Shown here in pieces: positions 3,728 to 7,969 of a stretch of DNA of 64,000 nucleotides. Source of the stretch: Gammaproteobacteria bacterium (lineage in GTDB: Bacteria > Pseudomonadota > Gammaproteobacteria > Tenderiales > Tenderiaceae); NCBI GenBank assembly GCA_021731365.1, contig JAKFXL010000017.1:41755-105754 (forward strand), read 5' to 3'. Each line of letters begins with the position of its first letter. Position 1 is the first letter of the stretch. Made by a program: the position numbers and the translations under genes. Under the pieces are notes generated by a model. It was not told the DNA's origin and did no database searches. It worked only from the letters and a program-made list of their open reading frames with translations.

Positions 3728-3849
3728 GGTTGATCTTATCCTTCAGAAGCGGGCTAAAAGTGGCTTTATGATAGCAAGGTTTGGCGTGGCTATCTTCAAA
3801 TAGTCTATAGTCCCTATGCTATTGGTGATACCCAAATGTGAAGTGCAGG

Positions 3850-4485
3850 GGATTGTTGAAATTTAACCAGGACGTGTGAAAGACCATGCAAAAAGCGGAA
3901 CCCCAACCAGCGAAAGTACAAAACCAACCGGCCTCCCAGCAGAGGGGCGGCGGGGTGGCCGACTCCCCACAGGCTGAACAGATCGCGCAACTTGAGGCGA
4001 TGGTTGCAGCCAGTTCACATCAGGCAGCGTTGCAGAAGATGGCGGACGGGATGCATAACAGCCTGCGCCAACGGACGGCGCAAAACTTTTTAGAAGGCAT
4101 CAACAACTCCCCGAAGATGGTGGCGCAACGCATGCGGCATGAGCAGATGTTCGGTGTGGCGCAGCTGGAGAAACAGGCCGAGGCCAAACCCAACAATACG
4201 GGGCTGCCGGATAACCTCAAATCCGGCATCGAGAACCTCTCCGGGATGTCGATGGACAACGTCAAGGTTCACTACAACTCGGACCAGCCCGCGCAACTCA
4301 ACGCCCTGGCCTACGCGCAAGGCAGTGACATCCACCTCGCGCCGGGGCAGGAGCAGCATCTGCCGCATGAGGCGTGGCATGTCGTCCAGCAGGCGCAGGG
4401 TCGGGTGCAGCCGACGATGCAGATGAAGGAAGGTATGCTGGTCAATGATGACAAGGGGCTGGAGCATGAGGCGGATGTGATGGGG
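3850..4485 (+). repeat. direct repeat copy 1: shared promoter-proximal plus 5' coding module of the DUF4157 paralogs
   Basis: Essentially 100% identical to 5702..6337 over ~600 nt of coding sequence plus ~36 nt upstream with a few mismatches. Identity ends abruptly after ...GATGTGATGGGGGC. Confidence 0.85.
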
Positions 4486-5619
4486 GCGAGGGCGTTGGAA
4501 TCTGCCGCGCAGCGGGTGACAAAATCGCCCGCTGAGATTGATGTTGCAGCCGGGCCTGTGATGCAGCGCTATGTGGAGGTCGGGGGCGGGGTGAGTCTTT
4601 CGGAGAACAGTGTTTTTGCCGTGAGAGGCGAGGGCAAGGGCAACGAACTGTTTGTGAAAGCGGGTACGCCATTGCCGGCATTCCAGCATGTTGCGTTGCA
4701 GGAAGGCGGCGACACGCTAAAGGTGTCCGGCGTCACGCTTGTCAAGGTGGATGCAGAGTATGAGAACGAAGACGAGTTAGCAAAGATGTATTGCGGAAAG
4801 TTTTCCGAGATGGTGACCGGGGTTAAGGAAAGCGAGGAAAATGAGACGGCGACGTCCGGTAGAAGTCTCTATGTAGATAGCCTATACGATCTTGAAGGCG
4901 ACTATGATGGGGCGTGGCAGAATCACTTCGCGCCGGTGGTTGTCGCCGATGGGTCTGATCGCGGCACCTTGGAGACGGCGGTCGGCATAGACTATATCTG
5001 GCACGGGATTTACGGCAAGAGTCGCGGGCAATCGTTCCGATATAAGACCGCCGTGGCGGATGTGGCGCTTCAACTCAGTCGTCAACGTGTGAGTCCGGAA
5101 CAGGCGCGTGAGGTGTTGGGTTATCTCGCACTCTACGTCAAGGATGGCATTCCAGATAAAGAGTCGATAACGCCACAAATTCTGGATGAGGTGCTGAAGA
5201 TTGAGACGGCGCTGAAAAGTCTTGTCGAGATAGGGTTCAAGGAACCCAAAACAACGGAACTGGGGTCAGCCAAGGAGGCGCGTGAAAAGAGAGAGGGGGA
5301 GGAGCGCAAGAAGCGCTATCTGGGTATCGTGGATGACATTAGCCAAGGCAAGCCCGGCTGGGAAGATCAAGTGAAGCAAGTGCACAAGTACACGATGCGC
5401 GCTCTGATCAGTGAGGCCCTCACGGCGAAGGATTTGACTGAGGATCAGGTGCTCAGGTTGCAGCAGGCCATGGGCATGGTTCAGGAGTCAATGTCGAACT
5501 CTAGTATAAGTTCGCGTCCGGAAAGTTCAGGTCTCTCAGGCCTGCAGGTTCTTGGCGGTCTGTCCATTTTGGCGATTGTAGGGGGGCTCTTGTACTACGC
5601 GAAATATAAGAGGAGCTAA
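3886..5619 (+). CDS. DUF4157 (zincin-like HExxH, eCIS-cargo-associated) domain protein with divergent C-terminal domain and C-terminal TM anchor
   Basis: 577 aa. Residues ~100-170 give LPDNLKSGIENLSGMSMDNVKVHYNSD...GSDIHLAPGQEQHLPHEAWHVVQQ, matching the DUF4157 consensus (FGxDFSxVRVHTD...GxDIxFAPGQY...HELTHVVQQ). Followed by LEHEADVMG. C-terminus GLQVLGGLSILAIVGGLLYYAKYKRS is a transmembrane helix. First in-frame ATG after a TGA. Confidence 0.7.
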   Translation: MQKAEPQPAKVQNQPASQQRGGGVADSPQAEQIAQLEAMVAASSHQAALQKMADGMHNSLRQRTAQNFLEGINNSPKMVAQRMRHEQMFGVAQLEKQAEAKPNNTGLPDNLKSGIENLSGMSMDNVKVHYNSDQPAQLNALAYAQGSDIHLAPGQEQHLPHEAWHVVQQAQGRVQPTMQMKEGMLVNDDKGLEHEADVMGARALESAAQRVTKSPAEIDVAAGPVMQRYVEVGGGVSLSENSVFAVRGEGKGNELFVKAGTPLPAFQHVALQEGGDTLKVSGVTLVKVDAEYENEDELAKMYCGKFSEMVTGVKESEENETATSGRSLYVDSLYDLEGDYDGAWQNHFAPVVVADGSDRGTLETAVGIDYIWHGIYGKSRGQSFRYKTAVADVALQLSRQRVSPEQAREVLGYLALYVKDGIPDKESITPQILDEVLKIETALKSLVEIGFKEPKTTELGSAKEAREKREGEERKKRYLGIVDDISQGKPGWEDQVKQVHKYTMRALISEALTAKDLTEDQVLRLQQAMGMVQESMSNSSISSRPESSGLSGLQVLGGLSILAIVGGLLYYAKYKRS

Positions 5620-5701
5620 GATGCTGGGCTGGAGTTGATTTTTGTCTGTCATAAATTCCCGCAAGGTAGTCCAGTGGCATGTACAGGGCAGCTGCTTAAA
5701 G

Positions 5702-6337
5702 GATTATTGAAATTTAATAAGGACGTGTGAAAAAGCCATGCAAAAAGCGGAACCCCAACCAGCGAAAGTACAAAACCAACCGGCCTCCCAGCAGAGGGGC
5801 GGCGGGGTGGCCGACTCCCCACAGGCTGAACAGATCGCGCAACTTGAGGCGATGGTTGCAGCCAGTTCACATCAGGCAGCGTTGCAGAAGATGGCGGACG
5901 GGATGCATAACAGCCTGCGCCAACGGACGGCGCAAAACTTTTTAGAAGGCATCAACAACTCCCCGAAGATGGTGGCGCAACGCATGCGGCATGAGCAGAT
6001 GTTCGGTGTGGCGCAGCTGGAGAAACAGGCCGAGGCCAAACCCAACAATACGGGGCTGCCGGATAACCTCAAATCCGGCATCGAGAACCTCTCCGGGATG
6101 TCGATGGACAACGTCAAGGTTCACTACAACTCGGACCAGCCCGCGCAACTCAACGCCCTGGCCTACGCGCAAGGCAGTGACATCCACCTCGCGCCGGGGC
6201 AGGAGCAGCATCTGCCGCATGAGGCGTGGCATGTCGTCCAGCAGGCGCAGGGTCGGGTGCAGCCGACGATGCAGATGAAGGAAGGTATGCTGGTCAATGA
6301 TGACAAGGGGCTGGAGCATGAGGCGGATGTGATGGGG
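5702..6337 (+). repeat. direct repeat copy 2 of the DUF4157 5' module
   Basis: See copy 1. The offset between copies is 1852 bp. Confidence 0.85.
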
Positions 6338-7969
6338 GCCAAGGCGCTATCGCCCGCCGCTCAGCTCAAAGGCGGGCATGCGGAAGAGCGACTCTTGCAA
6401 GGAAAACTCGCGCCAGCGCAGCGCCCGGAACTTAAACAGGGTGCATCTGCCTTGAAGGAGACAGCATCGCTACGCAAGCGGTCAGATCAGGCCAATACAT
6501 TTTGTTGTCTGCAGCGCAAGATCGAGCGCGGAAGCAACACGGGCTGGGGCGGTTTGTGGTGGGTCACTGATGGCAAGGCACTCTGGGGCCAAATCGACAA
6601 AGGGTTCAATGTAGATCTATTTGCCCTTCAAACAGATCTGCAAGCGCAGAAACCAACGACTGAAGCCATTGACTCGGTACTTGAGTCGATCAACACTTTC
6701 ATCAAATTCTGGGATGGCCGCGACCAGATATACTACGCTGCGAATCCTGAACGAAATCAACCGATCAGTGCTGCCGAGCTCGCTGAAAAAATTGATGCGG
6801 AACTGACTGGCGGGCGTCAGGCCCTTGAGGCCGCAAAGGAATCGGCATCCATGCGAGAAACAAAAACGGGGCCTTCCGATGTCGCGCTGAAAGAAAAAAA
6901 GACACGGGTAAAAAAAGGGAATGCCACAGCTAATCCACGCGTGAGTGGATCAACCAAAGGCGAAGCGAGGGTGACGGATATTCCAGTGTCCATCACTTCG
7001 GCTACGAAACAACCAGATGTCTCTCCCACGCGAGTTAACCCCTCGGTCAAGCCTAAAGCGACCACTGTTAAGCCGCCACGAGGACCGTCAGCCAAGGAGC
7101 TAGAAGCTGCGCGTCAGGAGGAGCGCAGGCAGGCTAACGCAGTAAAGAAAGCGGAAAACGCGGAACGCCAAACGTCTGTAGCGAATTTCGGGAAGATACT
7201 CAGTGAAAAAACAAACTCCCTCATCACATCTGAGAAGATTAACCAATGGCAGACTTGGTCTGGTGAACTAGATACTTTAGTTACGAAGGCTAAGCAGAAC
7301 CCCAACCTCGAACCGGCGTTGAAGAAGCTCTACGATGAGTGGACCAAGAAGCTCGTAGAGAAACGGGAGGCCAATGAGATCGAACGGCGCGGAACCAAGA
7401 AGCAATGGGAAACCTGGACCGGACTCAATGACTACCGCGTGATCGAAAACCTGCCGGGGGCTATATTTACACCAGCGCGCGCGCCTACTCAGGGACCCAT
7501 GACTGAGCAGGGCGAGGGGCCGGCCGAGCAAAACGAGGCTCCGGCCCCGTTAGAGATTCATGTCACCTACGACACCAATTCGGTGCGGGCACCGACAGAC
7601 TCAATTAATGGGATGGCTGCCCCCCTATTGGTTGACCACCTGCTTAGCACCTACTCTGTGTGGCAGCGTATTCACGGCTCGCTCGAAACATCTTACGGAC
7701 CACCTTACCCGCACATTTATTGGGGAGGAGATGATCTTGGCTTAGGCGCAGCGCGTTACTCTCAATGGAATGCAATGCCCGAGGGTTGGTTGCCAGGGCC
7801 GGAAGGAGCCGTTGCCAAGACGAAAGTCGAATCGGTGCTGAACGACTATGTCGCCGATAACATCGTGCCGCTTGTGCAATCGCACCTGTCGAGCGTGATG
7901 TTTAAAGTCTATGTTTGGCCGATGTTCGCGGAGTTAAATTCGCCCTCCAACAAGGAAGTCGTCAAGTAG
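5738..7969 (+). CDS. DUF4157 (zincin-like HExxH) domain protein, paralog 2, with long unrelated C-terminal region
   Basis: 743 aa. The first ~200 aa are identical to the upstream paralog. After that comes an unrelated sequence: a K/E/A/T-rich low-complexity linker, then a globular C-terminal region (…HVTYDTNSVRAPTDSINGMAAPLLVDHLLSTYSVWQRIHG…). No TM anchor. Confidence 0.7.
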   Translation: MQKAEPQPAKVQNQPASQQRGGGVADSPQAEQIAQLEAMVAASSHQAALQKMADGMHNSLRQRTAQNFLEGINNSPKMVAQRMRHEQMFGVAQLEKQAEAKPNNTGLPDNLKSGIENLSGMSMDNVKVHYNSDQPAQLNALAYAQGSDIHLAPGQEQHLPHEAWHVVQQAQGRVQPTMQMKEGMLVNDDKGLEHEADVMGAKALSPAAQLKGGHAEERLLQGKLAPAQRPELKQGASALKETASLRKRSDQANTFCCLQRKIERGSNTGWGGLWWVTDGKALWGQIDKGFNVDLFALQTDLQAQKPTTEAIDSVLESINTFIKFWDGRDQIYYAANPERNQPISAAELAEKIDAELTGGRQALEAAKESASMRETKTGPSDVALKEKKTRVKKGNATANPRVSGSTKGEARVTDIPVSITSATKQPDVSPTRVNPSVKPKATTVKPPRGPSAKELEAARQEERRQANAVKKAENAERQTSVANFGKILSEKTNSLITSEKINQWQTWSGELDTLVTKAKQNPNLEPALKKLYDEWTKKLVEKREANEIERRGTKKQWETWTGLNDYRVIENLPGAIFTPARAPTQGPMTEQGEGPAEQNEAPAPLEIHVTYDTNSVRAPTDSINGMAAPLLVDHLLSTYSVWQRIHGSLETSYGPPYPHIYWGGDDLGLGAARYSQWNAMPEGWLPGPEGAVAKTKVESVLNDYVADNIVPLVQSHLSSVMFKVYVWPMFAELNSPSNKEVVK

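Follow-up and report, generated by a model that had tools for sequence, protein, structure and literature searches.

We describe a pair of tandem genes, ORF A and ORF B (ORF, open reading frame), in a 64,000-nucleotide stretch of contig JAKFXL010000017.1 (GenBank assembly GCA_021731365.1, positions 41,755 to 105,754 of the forward strand) from a gammaproteobacterium of the family Tenderiaceae; the whole of this stretch is referred to as the window. Each gene encodes a leader and a DUF4157 domain that are the same in both, followed by a C-terminal domain of its own, and we consider the two products as candidate payloads of an extracellular contractile injection system (eCIS). The features of the locus are listed by window position, with related loci in other genomes given as L numbers and related proteins as P numbers.

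3886..5619, + strand: ORF A, 577 amino acids (aa), consisting of leader, DUF4157 and C-terminal domain A; identical to database protein P0001
5738..7969, + strand: ORF B, 743 aa, with the same leader and DUF4157 as A, then domain B; identical to P0005
3884..4487, + strand: exact repeat copy 1, 604 nt, codons 1-201 of ORF A
5736..6339, + strand: exact repeat copy 2, 604 nt, codons 1-201 of ORF B
3850..3885, + strand: 5' region upstream of ORF A ('g2-type': GGATTGTTGAAATTTAACCAGGACGTGTGAAAGACC), ~90% identical to 5701-5737
5701..5737, + strand: 5' region upstream of ORF B, copy 2, from its alignment with 3850-3885
3886..4203, + strand: leader of A (aa 1-106), Q/A-rich with degenerate 'HNSP..AQR' repeats, a putative eCIS loading sequence
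4204..4488, + strand: DUF4157 (eCIS_core) zincin-like domain of A (aa 107-201), PF13699, with HEAWH at 4366-4380
6056-6340, + strand: DUF4157 core of ORF B, the same 95-aa core
4489..5616, + strand: C-terminal domain A (aa 202-577), comprising a beta-rich domain (aa 229-366), a helical domain and a C-terminal hydrophobic helix
5533-5595, + strand: hydrophobic helix of domain A (aa ~550-570), from hydropathy
6341..7966, + strand: C-terminal domain B (aa 202-743), comprising an 'RGSxTGWG…' sub-domain, low-complexity K/P/E linkers, a helical region and a ~150-aa end domain
5620..5666, + strand: degenerate copy of the 3' end of rnd (opposite strand), 47 nt directly past the ORF A stop, from alignment
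2450..3727, - strand: gene for a 425-aa protein, divergent, the conserved left border; kept in L005, L006 and L010; no Pfam match
7979..9145, - strand: rnd (RNase D), the conserved right border; Pfam DNA_pol_A_exo1 and HRDC

The coding tract shared by the two genes shows 0 differences over 604 nt in the assembled sequence. Immediately upstream of it, ~34 nt (3850-3883 versus 5701-5735) align at ~90% identity with 4 mismatches and 1 indel, and upstream of that 5' region the two copies give no alignment. At the other end, identity is down to a background level of 28-37% per 60 nt, and this boundary coincides with the end of the conserved DUF4157 core, between …EADVMGA and R/K. The 118-bp gap from the ORF A stop to the ORF B start contains only the rnd remnant and the leader (5' region) of B, and rnd itself, convergent with ORF B, lies 9 nt past the B stop. 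A first-pass annotation of this DNA had described two neighbouring same-strand genes of 577 and 743 aa, a near-identical ~640-bp segment ending at a sharp boundary with unrelated proteins beyond it, and, with ~118 bp after the first gene and rnd directly after the second, no immunity ORF between or behind them; our coordinates and alignments bear this description out, the ~640 bp resolving into 604 exact nt and ~34 nt at ~90% with the one indel. No consensus plus-strand promoter was found between A and B, and terminator-like matches there are at chance level. On the minus strand, sigma-70-like matches occur in the 5' repeat (3880 to 3852, TTCACA-17-AACAAT, 9/12; 5731 to 5703, TTCACA-17-AATAAT, 10/12). 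The copy-1 match would point to the divergent 425-aa gene; the overall count of such matches is at chance level, and we regard it as a lead only.

The DUF4157 domain predicted earlier in the shared module was recovered by a PF13699 search of both proteins. The profile, which Pfam now names 'eCIS_core', matches aa 107-172 of each with E ~1e-8 (8.4e-9 for A) and 35.9 and 35.5 bits against a gathering cutoff of 22 bits, over profile positions 2-78/79. In both proteins the HExxH motif is HEAWH at aa 161-165, which is invariant across the family alignment, and GLEHEAD follows at aa 191-197. The core is far more conserved than either leaders or C-termini: more than 100 metagenome proteins match it at 88-93% identity, and over its 95 aa it retains 75-87% identity across Gammaproteobacteria, Bacteroidota, Acidobacteriota, Cyanobacteria and Methanosarcina (loci L021-L088), while leaders of the family share 35-70% identity among relatives. 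To judge from these alignments, such conservation across phyla suggests horizontal spread together with a strongly constrained interaction.

Neither N-terminus carries a Sec or Tat signal. The first 50 aa contain 0 aromatic residues, have a grand average of hydropathy of -0.68 and consist to 78% of disorder-promoting residues, the last figure being a composition proxy for disorder. Because low hydrophobicity, high disorder propensity and low aromaticity are the traits reported for eCIS signal regions (PMC11297309), we count the composition of the leader in favour of eCIS cargo.

Domain A has ~20 relatives, and 13 of the 18 aligned homologues are fused to DUF4157. Five residues are invariant in that alignment of 18: C303, H347, D355, D358 and E363. 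An AlphaFold2 model (pLDDT 75.8) consists of a beta-rich domain, a helical domain and the terminal hydrophobic helix; C303 opens a predicted helix at 102-110 of the domain, and H347 and D355/D358 fall on adjacent predicted strands (145-154 and 157-160). In the model this placement of Cys, His and Asp resembles papain-like geometry, from which we infer a catalytic triad, and we regard domain A as a probable Cys-His-Asp enzyme, anchored in the membrane by its C-terminus. Since domain A has no sequence match in Pfam, NCBIfam or the PDB, no informative fold match by structure search and no profile match that would place it among papain-like, NlpC-P60 or transglutaminase-like cysteine hydrolases, the papain-like assignment is offered as a prediction.

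Domain B is rarer. An exhaustive HMMER search of 1.84 billion representatives returned 14 relatives, six of them below 1e-30, and a set of 5.8 billion proteins contained 1; these relatives are elsewhere fused to other leaders without DUF4157, and they sit on contigs of 2.6-3 kb whose context is uninformative. The final ~150 aa carry the pattern IHVTYD…RIHGxLE…YWGGxDLGLGAxRY. The AlphaFold2 model of domain B is poor (pLDDT 62.9), and the domain has no match in Pfam and no fold match by Foldseek. One relative, P0136, shares only the first sub-domain of B ('RGSGTGWG…') and then continues into a different C-terminus (…YKEYYVEKDP…GDRRIVVS…YYTDDHYATFKRI). That segment resembles, we presume, small microbial ribonucleases. 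If the end of P0136 is indeed ribonuclease-like, one would take B's first sub-domain for a linker or pre-toxin module and not for the effector. Domains A and B are candidate effector domains, both of them uncharacterised.

The interval from the 425-aa gene to rnd is a cassette locus whose content varies among strains. Its flanks, a 272-aa gene and the 425-aa gene on the left and rnd followed by genes for a methyl-accepting chemotaxis protein and a SulP protein on the right, are common to four related assemblies at 82-96% identity, and synteny resumes at 7977-7980 in L005, L009 and L010. Among related assemblies this one site occurs in four configurations with four different C-terminal domains. 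L010, a metagenome-assembled genome (MAG) of Candidatus Tenderia (contig JANOSY010000017.1) whose flanks are 94-96% identical to those of the window, carries a single gene of 330 aa with a fourth, short C-terminal domain; the DUF4157 core of the window is 91-96% identical to that of L010 at the DNA level, with HExxH intact. In L009 (GCA_034376985.1), gene 1 is the orthologue of A, with a domain A that is 96% identical and a leader that is only 55% identical, and gene 2 (2146-3042, 298 aa) combines a leader 82% identical to that of the window with a third C-terminal domain, without the DUF4157 core: it jumps from leader aa 90 directly to the 'GLEHEA' end of DUF4157. Another leader-family gene without the core lies at L001 5713-7044. 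L005 and L006 share the layout of L009, with gene 1 frameshifted between DUF4157 and domain A and gene 2 interrupted by two in-frame stops in the leader (L005 4957-7754); these disruptions reflect either a decaying locus or sequence errors in the MAGs. Only the window has the B-specific segment (~5980-7979), which L005, L009 and L010 lack. An rnd remnant like the one behind A also follows gene 1 of L009, and a longer one follows the single gene of L010 (L010 10994-11075). These copies of the rnd 3' end after A and after the L010 gene indicate that unequal or illegitimate crossing-over has added cassettes beside rnd and, in doing so, duplicated the rnd terminus.

Several features of or around the site were considered and set aside. 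The 425-aa protein weakly resembles a YVTN beta-propeller S-layer protein (PDB 1l0q, E 2.9e-5), and a 419-aa paralogue with the same weak YVTN similarity and no Pfam match lies just past the left end of the window (L010 4969-6228, - strand). The 425-aa and 272-aa genes were rejected as immunity or accessory genes, having weak YVTN similarity only and being conserved flanks outside the variable unit. A phage origin was likewise rejected, with only 4 relatives in 2.9 million viral contigs, as was an RNA element or tRNA integration site at the locus: Rfam matches only an RNase P RNA, at 26205-26567, and tRNAs are absent.

How the two 5' modules came to be identical can be read from the same set of assemblies. 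The slot-1 and slot-2 genes of L005 and L009 differ in their leaders and first codons, and the two leaders of L009 are only 79% identical to each other; both copies in the window and the single gene of L010 have the slot-2-type leader, with the slot-1 genes of L005 and L009 having a different one, and gene 2 of L005 holds a patch nearly identical to gene 1 of L005. The absence of any difference over 604 nt, the 4 mismatches and 1 indel just upstream, and this mixture of leader types therefore indicate recurrent gene conversion between tandem copies, not a fresh duplication, and by this comparison the latest conversion tract would comprise exactly leader plus DUF4157 (codons 1-201) and would be very recent. 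Where duplication, gene conversion or cassette exchange had all been proposed at first, the four related assemblies strongly support gene conversion or cassette exchange, and the upstream mismatches speak against a simple fresh duplication. Because the two repeats are in direct orientation, the A cassette would be lost on RecA-type recombination between the copies.

Perfect identity could also arise in assembly, by a consensus copied or collapsed across diverged paralogous 5' modules or by the joining of two strains, a concern that is fed by the nature of the source, an assembly contig of 125 kb whose closest relatives are MAGs, and by the only 79% identity of paralogue pairs in relatives. We regard this as very improbable. 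The tandem layout itself (gene 1, intergenic region, second leader-bearing gene) is no artefact, as it recurs in four independent assemblies (L005, L006, L007 and L009); the right junction of B meets unique rnd sequence and offers no repeat that could cause a misjoin; an exact repeat of 604 nt normally breaks short-read assemblies and is not invented by them; and the leaders just upstream of the tract differ, as a real conversion tract would give.

We next consider where relatives of these modules are found. A scan of one genome per species found more than 590 loci encoding the DUF4157 module, of which 79 were kept. At least 30 of the 79 have sheath, tube, VgrG-like, tape-measure or Afp15-like AAA+ genes within 10 kb, and the count becomes 34 if a conserved gene of ~900-1000 aa directly after the ATPase is also included. 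That gene precedes an array of five leader-family genes in a Gallionella-like MAG (L001/L091) and elsewhere stands directly after the AAA+ ATPase. Leader-family genes also lie beside tape-measure and AAA+ genes in L040 and adjoin eCIS genes in L015; those of L001/L091 and L040 stand at the 3' end of the eCIS operon. In Methylobacter, the domain-A relative P0011 is encoded 2 kb away from CIS_TMP and AAA genes. Close relatives of the modules are thus found in eCIS operons (L001/L091, L040, L015, P0011), while the window array itself is not within ~10 genes of such an operon, its Pfam-scanned neighbours being housekeeping genes. Tandem arrays are common in this set: 24 related loci have two or more DUF4157 genes with related leaders and unrelated C-termini, and the window is the only one of the 24 with 100% identity of both leader and core.

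This architecture has clear precedents. DUF4157 is a core eCIS marker that occurs in proteins with an N-terminal DUF4157 and a C-terminal toxin (Geller et al. 2021, PMC8213781; see also PMC11297309), in agreement with the use made of it in the first-pass annotation, and 983 of 1130 predicted DUF4157 proteins have no other annotated domain (PMC8213781; Danov et al. 2024, PMC11297309). The label 'zincin-like toxin' given to A and B at that stage is misleading in this light: DUF4157 is an accessory module and not the toxic part, and the toxicity of Cgo1 is independent of its metalloprotease motif (PMC11297309). eCIS-associated toxins (EATs) such as EAT11 and EAT14 resemble A and B in their N-terminal PF13699, C-terminal effector, often missing immunity genes and signal-like leader composition; unlike the 88% of EATs that lie within ten genes of an eCIS operon (PMC11297309), the window locus does not, and its C-terminal domains fall outside the annotated toxin families.

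The closest plan is that of Cgo1 and Cgo2 of AlgoCIS (2022, PMC8894135), which share a related N-terminal domain and DUF4157 and then diverge into unrelated C-terminal domains of different length, so that the expectation of a constant N-module with variable C-termini for alternative payloads holds; there the disordered N-terminal domain is needed for loading and DUF4157 is dispensable (bioRxiv 10.64898/2026.05.27.728243). The slot-2 leader of L009, which lacks DUF4157, fits this dispensability, and the leader-only genes (L009 gene 2 and L001 5713-7044) are, to judge from sequence, natural counterparts of the experimental DUF4157 deletion. The Cgo genes reportedly belong to the AlgoCIS gene cluster (Xu et al. 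2022), whereas the window genes lie beside no CIS operon; their leaders also belong to another sequence family, their N-modules are 100% identical at the DNA level, and loading is putative here.

The comparison extends to the Rhs and CdiA polymorphic toxins, which likewise join a constant N-terminus to hypervariable C-terminal modules that are exchanged by homologous recombination, accumulate in tandem and replace one another among strains. Those systems have 5'-truncated silent orphan modules and cognate immunity genes, whereas both window genes are complete with their own start and leader, have no immunity genes and no Rhs or filamentous haemagglutinin (FHA) repeats, and use another trafficking module. 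Of the hallmarks of polymorphic toxins, the locus has strain-variable C-termini on a constant N-terminus; it has neither a downstream immunity gene nor a recognised toxin family or fold. A DUF4157-type HExxH domain is also delivered by a contractile system in VgrG2b of Pseudomonas aeruginosa, where it is reported (Wood et al. 2019, PMC6899460) to be fused to the VgrG spike as a C-terminal metallopeptidase and to be itself the toxin, with an immunity protein; the DUF4157 of the window differs in being internal, after a leader and before variable domains, and not C-terminal.

Upstream of the array the window contains a type VI secretion system (T6SS) effector and immunity pair within a patch of 34-42% GC, in surroundings of ~56% GC:

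587..1090, - strand: Tae4-family T6SS amidase effector, 167 aa, E 3e-17
1072..1683, - strand: Rap1a-type immunity gene, overlapping the Tae4 gene, 203 aa, E 3e-11

The pair is kept in the Candidatus Tenderia MAG L010 and implies that the genome encodes, or once encoded, a T6SS. The view that the window holds no eCIS or T6SS structural genes agrees with our Pfam scans of the neighbouring genes and with a six-frame search of the whole window for Afp1-16 of Serratia entomophila pADAP; this Tae4/Rap1a pair, 2.2 kb upstream of the array, had been overlooked in that view.

Taken together, these observations lead us to favour, with moderate confidence, the reading that ORF A and ORF B, at a cassette site that varies among strains, form an orphan array: two alternative eCIS payloads with a loading module in common; from the relatives we infer an eCIS elsewhere in the genome, into which A and B would be loaded and whose target they would harm. 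A number of observations weigh against this reading. The six-frame ORFs of the 64-kb window contain no Afp1-16 homologue, the closest relative, L010, has no eCIS structural gene within 10 kb, and some relatives are orphans among housekeeping genes (the full-length or domain-A relatives P0003 and P0008; orphan loci L002 and L100). The genes in L005 and L006 are disrupted, so that the locus can decay, as might occur without a machine. For both C-terminal domains, Pfam, NCBIfam, the PDB and fold searches gave no known toxin family or fold, there is no immunity gene at the locus, and a T6SS effector/immunity pair adjoins it. The six-frame ORFs of the syntenic L005, L009 and L010 also contain no Afp1-16 homologue, and a literature search found no contractile system reported for Candidatus Tenderia. 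As to the target, the missing immunity genes had been taken to favour a eukaryotic one; because antibacterial eCIS toxins often lack immunity genes too (PMC8213781), that conclusion is unsupported.

The adjoining pair raises the alternative that A and B are T6SS effectors, exported like the neighbouring Tae4 amidase by a T6SS encoded elsewhere. Besides the Tae4 and Rap1a-type genes 2.2 kb upstream, kept in L010, it can draw on the VgrG2b precedent and on a PAAR-like DUF4280 gene inside the L001 array. We nevertheless hold it to be distinctly unlikely: no VgrG, PAAR, Hcp or adaptor fusion exists in A or B or among the scanned neighbours, those neighbours include no T6SS structural gene, A and B have no immunity genes, the Tae4 island is split from the array by two conserved, unrelated genes on the opposite strand, and in other genomes the leader family is tied to the ends of eCIS operons and not to T6SS genes. 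The array might instead be a relic, once eCIS-linked cargo and now partly decaying after loss of the machine, kept by hitch-hiking or recombination and delivered by nothing. The orphan locations in the window, L010, L002 and L100, the frameshift and in-frame stops of L005 and L006 and the slot-2 gene of L009 without its DUF4157 core are what such a history would leave behind; yet neither window gene is disrupted over its 577 or 743 codons, at the DNA level their DUF4157 core matches that of L010 at 91-96% identity with its HExxH intact, and continuing cassette turnover with intact frames in 3 of 4 lineages argues for selection, which makes a relic unlikely in our estimation. Very improbable, too, is the idea that A and B are not cargo at all but secreted or membrane-anchored metallopeptidases that serve the producer cell with DUF4157 as the active enzyme. 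An intact HExxH in an extremely conserved core and the C-terminal hydrophobic helix of ORF A would suit it, but there is no Sec or Tat signal, and the hallmarks of polymorphic effectors (variable C-terminus, cassette replacement, a leader-only slot-2 gene and eCIS-linked relatives) speak against it.

If A and B are alternative eCIS payloads, we propose that they would work as follows. By analogy with Cgo1 and Cgo2 of AlgoCIS, the ~106-aa hydrophilic leader would be the loading signal specific to the system, an Afp15-like AAA+ ATPase would assist in its recognition, and the DUF4157 module would be an accessory or processing element dispensable for loading. The third part would be the effector domain, which in A is a probable Cys-His-Asp enzyme with a membrane anchor, and the two effectors would be alternative payloads of one eCIS encoded elsewhere in the genome. 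Recombination would bring in new C-terminal modules through two crossovers, one falling within the leader/DUF4157 module and one at or inside the rnd 3' end; this would leave duplications of the rnd terminus and build tandem arrays, and gene conversion between tandem copies would repeatedly homogenise the 5' modules.

More speculatively, the site beside rnd could be a dedicated hot spot for cargo cassettes in Tenderia-like Gammaproteobacteria, with leader and DUF4157 doubling as a homology handle and A and B representing new effector folds; we put this forward tentatively, as a proposal that is probably incorrect as it stands. Such a hot spot would capture and exchange effector modules through recombination between the ultra-conserved leader/DUF4157 module and the rnd 3' end, with rnd-terminus duplications left behind. 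In a stronger version, the organism may have no eCIS, and the leader/DUF4157 module may use another export route. If the hot-spot proposal is true, the DUF4157 module would let distant lineages share effectors.

The rest of the 64 kb is housekeeping DNA, including genes for the methyl-accepting chemotaxis protein, SulP, a beta-CASP RNase, an ABC-F protein, RNase P RNA, MraZ, SecA, ArgJ and others. Judging by gene order behind MraZ, we presume that the ORFs at ~27.3-45.7 kb form the dcw cluster; they were covered by the six-frame Afp search and lie outside the Pfam scan. An IS200-like Y1 transposase ORF (17289-17831, + strand; PF01797, E 2e-7) lies beside the ABC-F gene, and synteny with L010 stops at ~17.2-18.0 kb. 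The bacterial class A RNase P RNA at 26205-26567 (+ strand, 342 bits) makes the overlapping 190-aa ORF at 25942..26514 (- strand) spurious. A dynamin-like GTPase of 662 aa is encoded at 60398-62386 (- strand; Dynamin_N, E 1.6e-15).

Much of what the locus displays, namely its architecture, marker domain, tandem arrays and missing immunity genes, has already been described for eCIS-associated toxins. Modestly new are the orphan location, the four-state series of cassettes at a fixed site with rnd-terminus duplications, the leader variant without DUF4157 and the two uncharacterised C-terminal domains. DUF4157 proteins are the largest pool of predicted eCIS payloads, and eCIS are being engineered as protein-delivery tools; against this background the locus is a compact natural series of one site, four strains, four effector modules and one leader variant without DUF4157, in which domain A, with its conserved Cys-His-Asp set and membrane anchor, is directly testable. 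Because cargo genes can sit far from the genes of their machine, searches based on operon proximity would miss them. The current picture of eCIS biology is extended by this locus and not changed: here recombination within the conserved 5' module, the accretion of tandem copies and gene conversion would drive the turnover of payloads.

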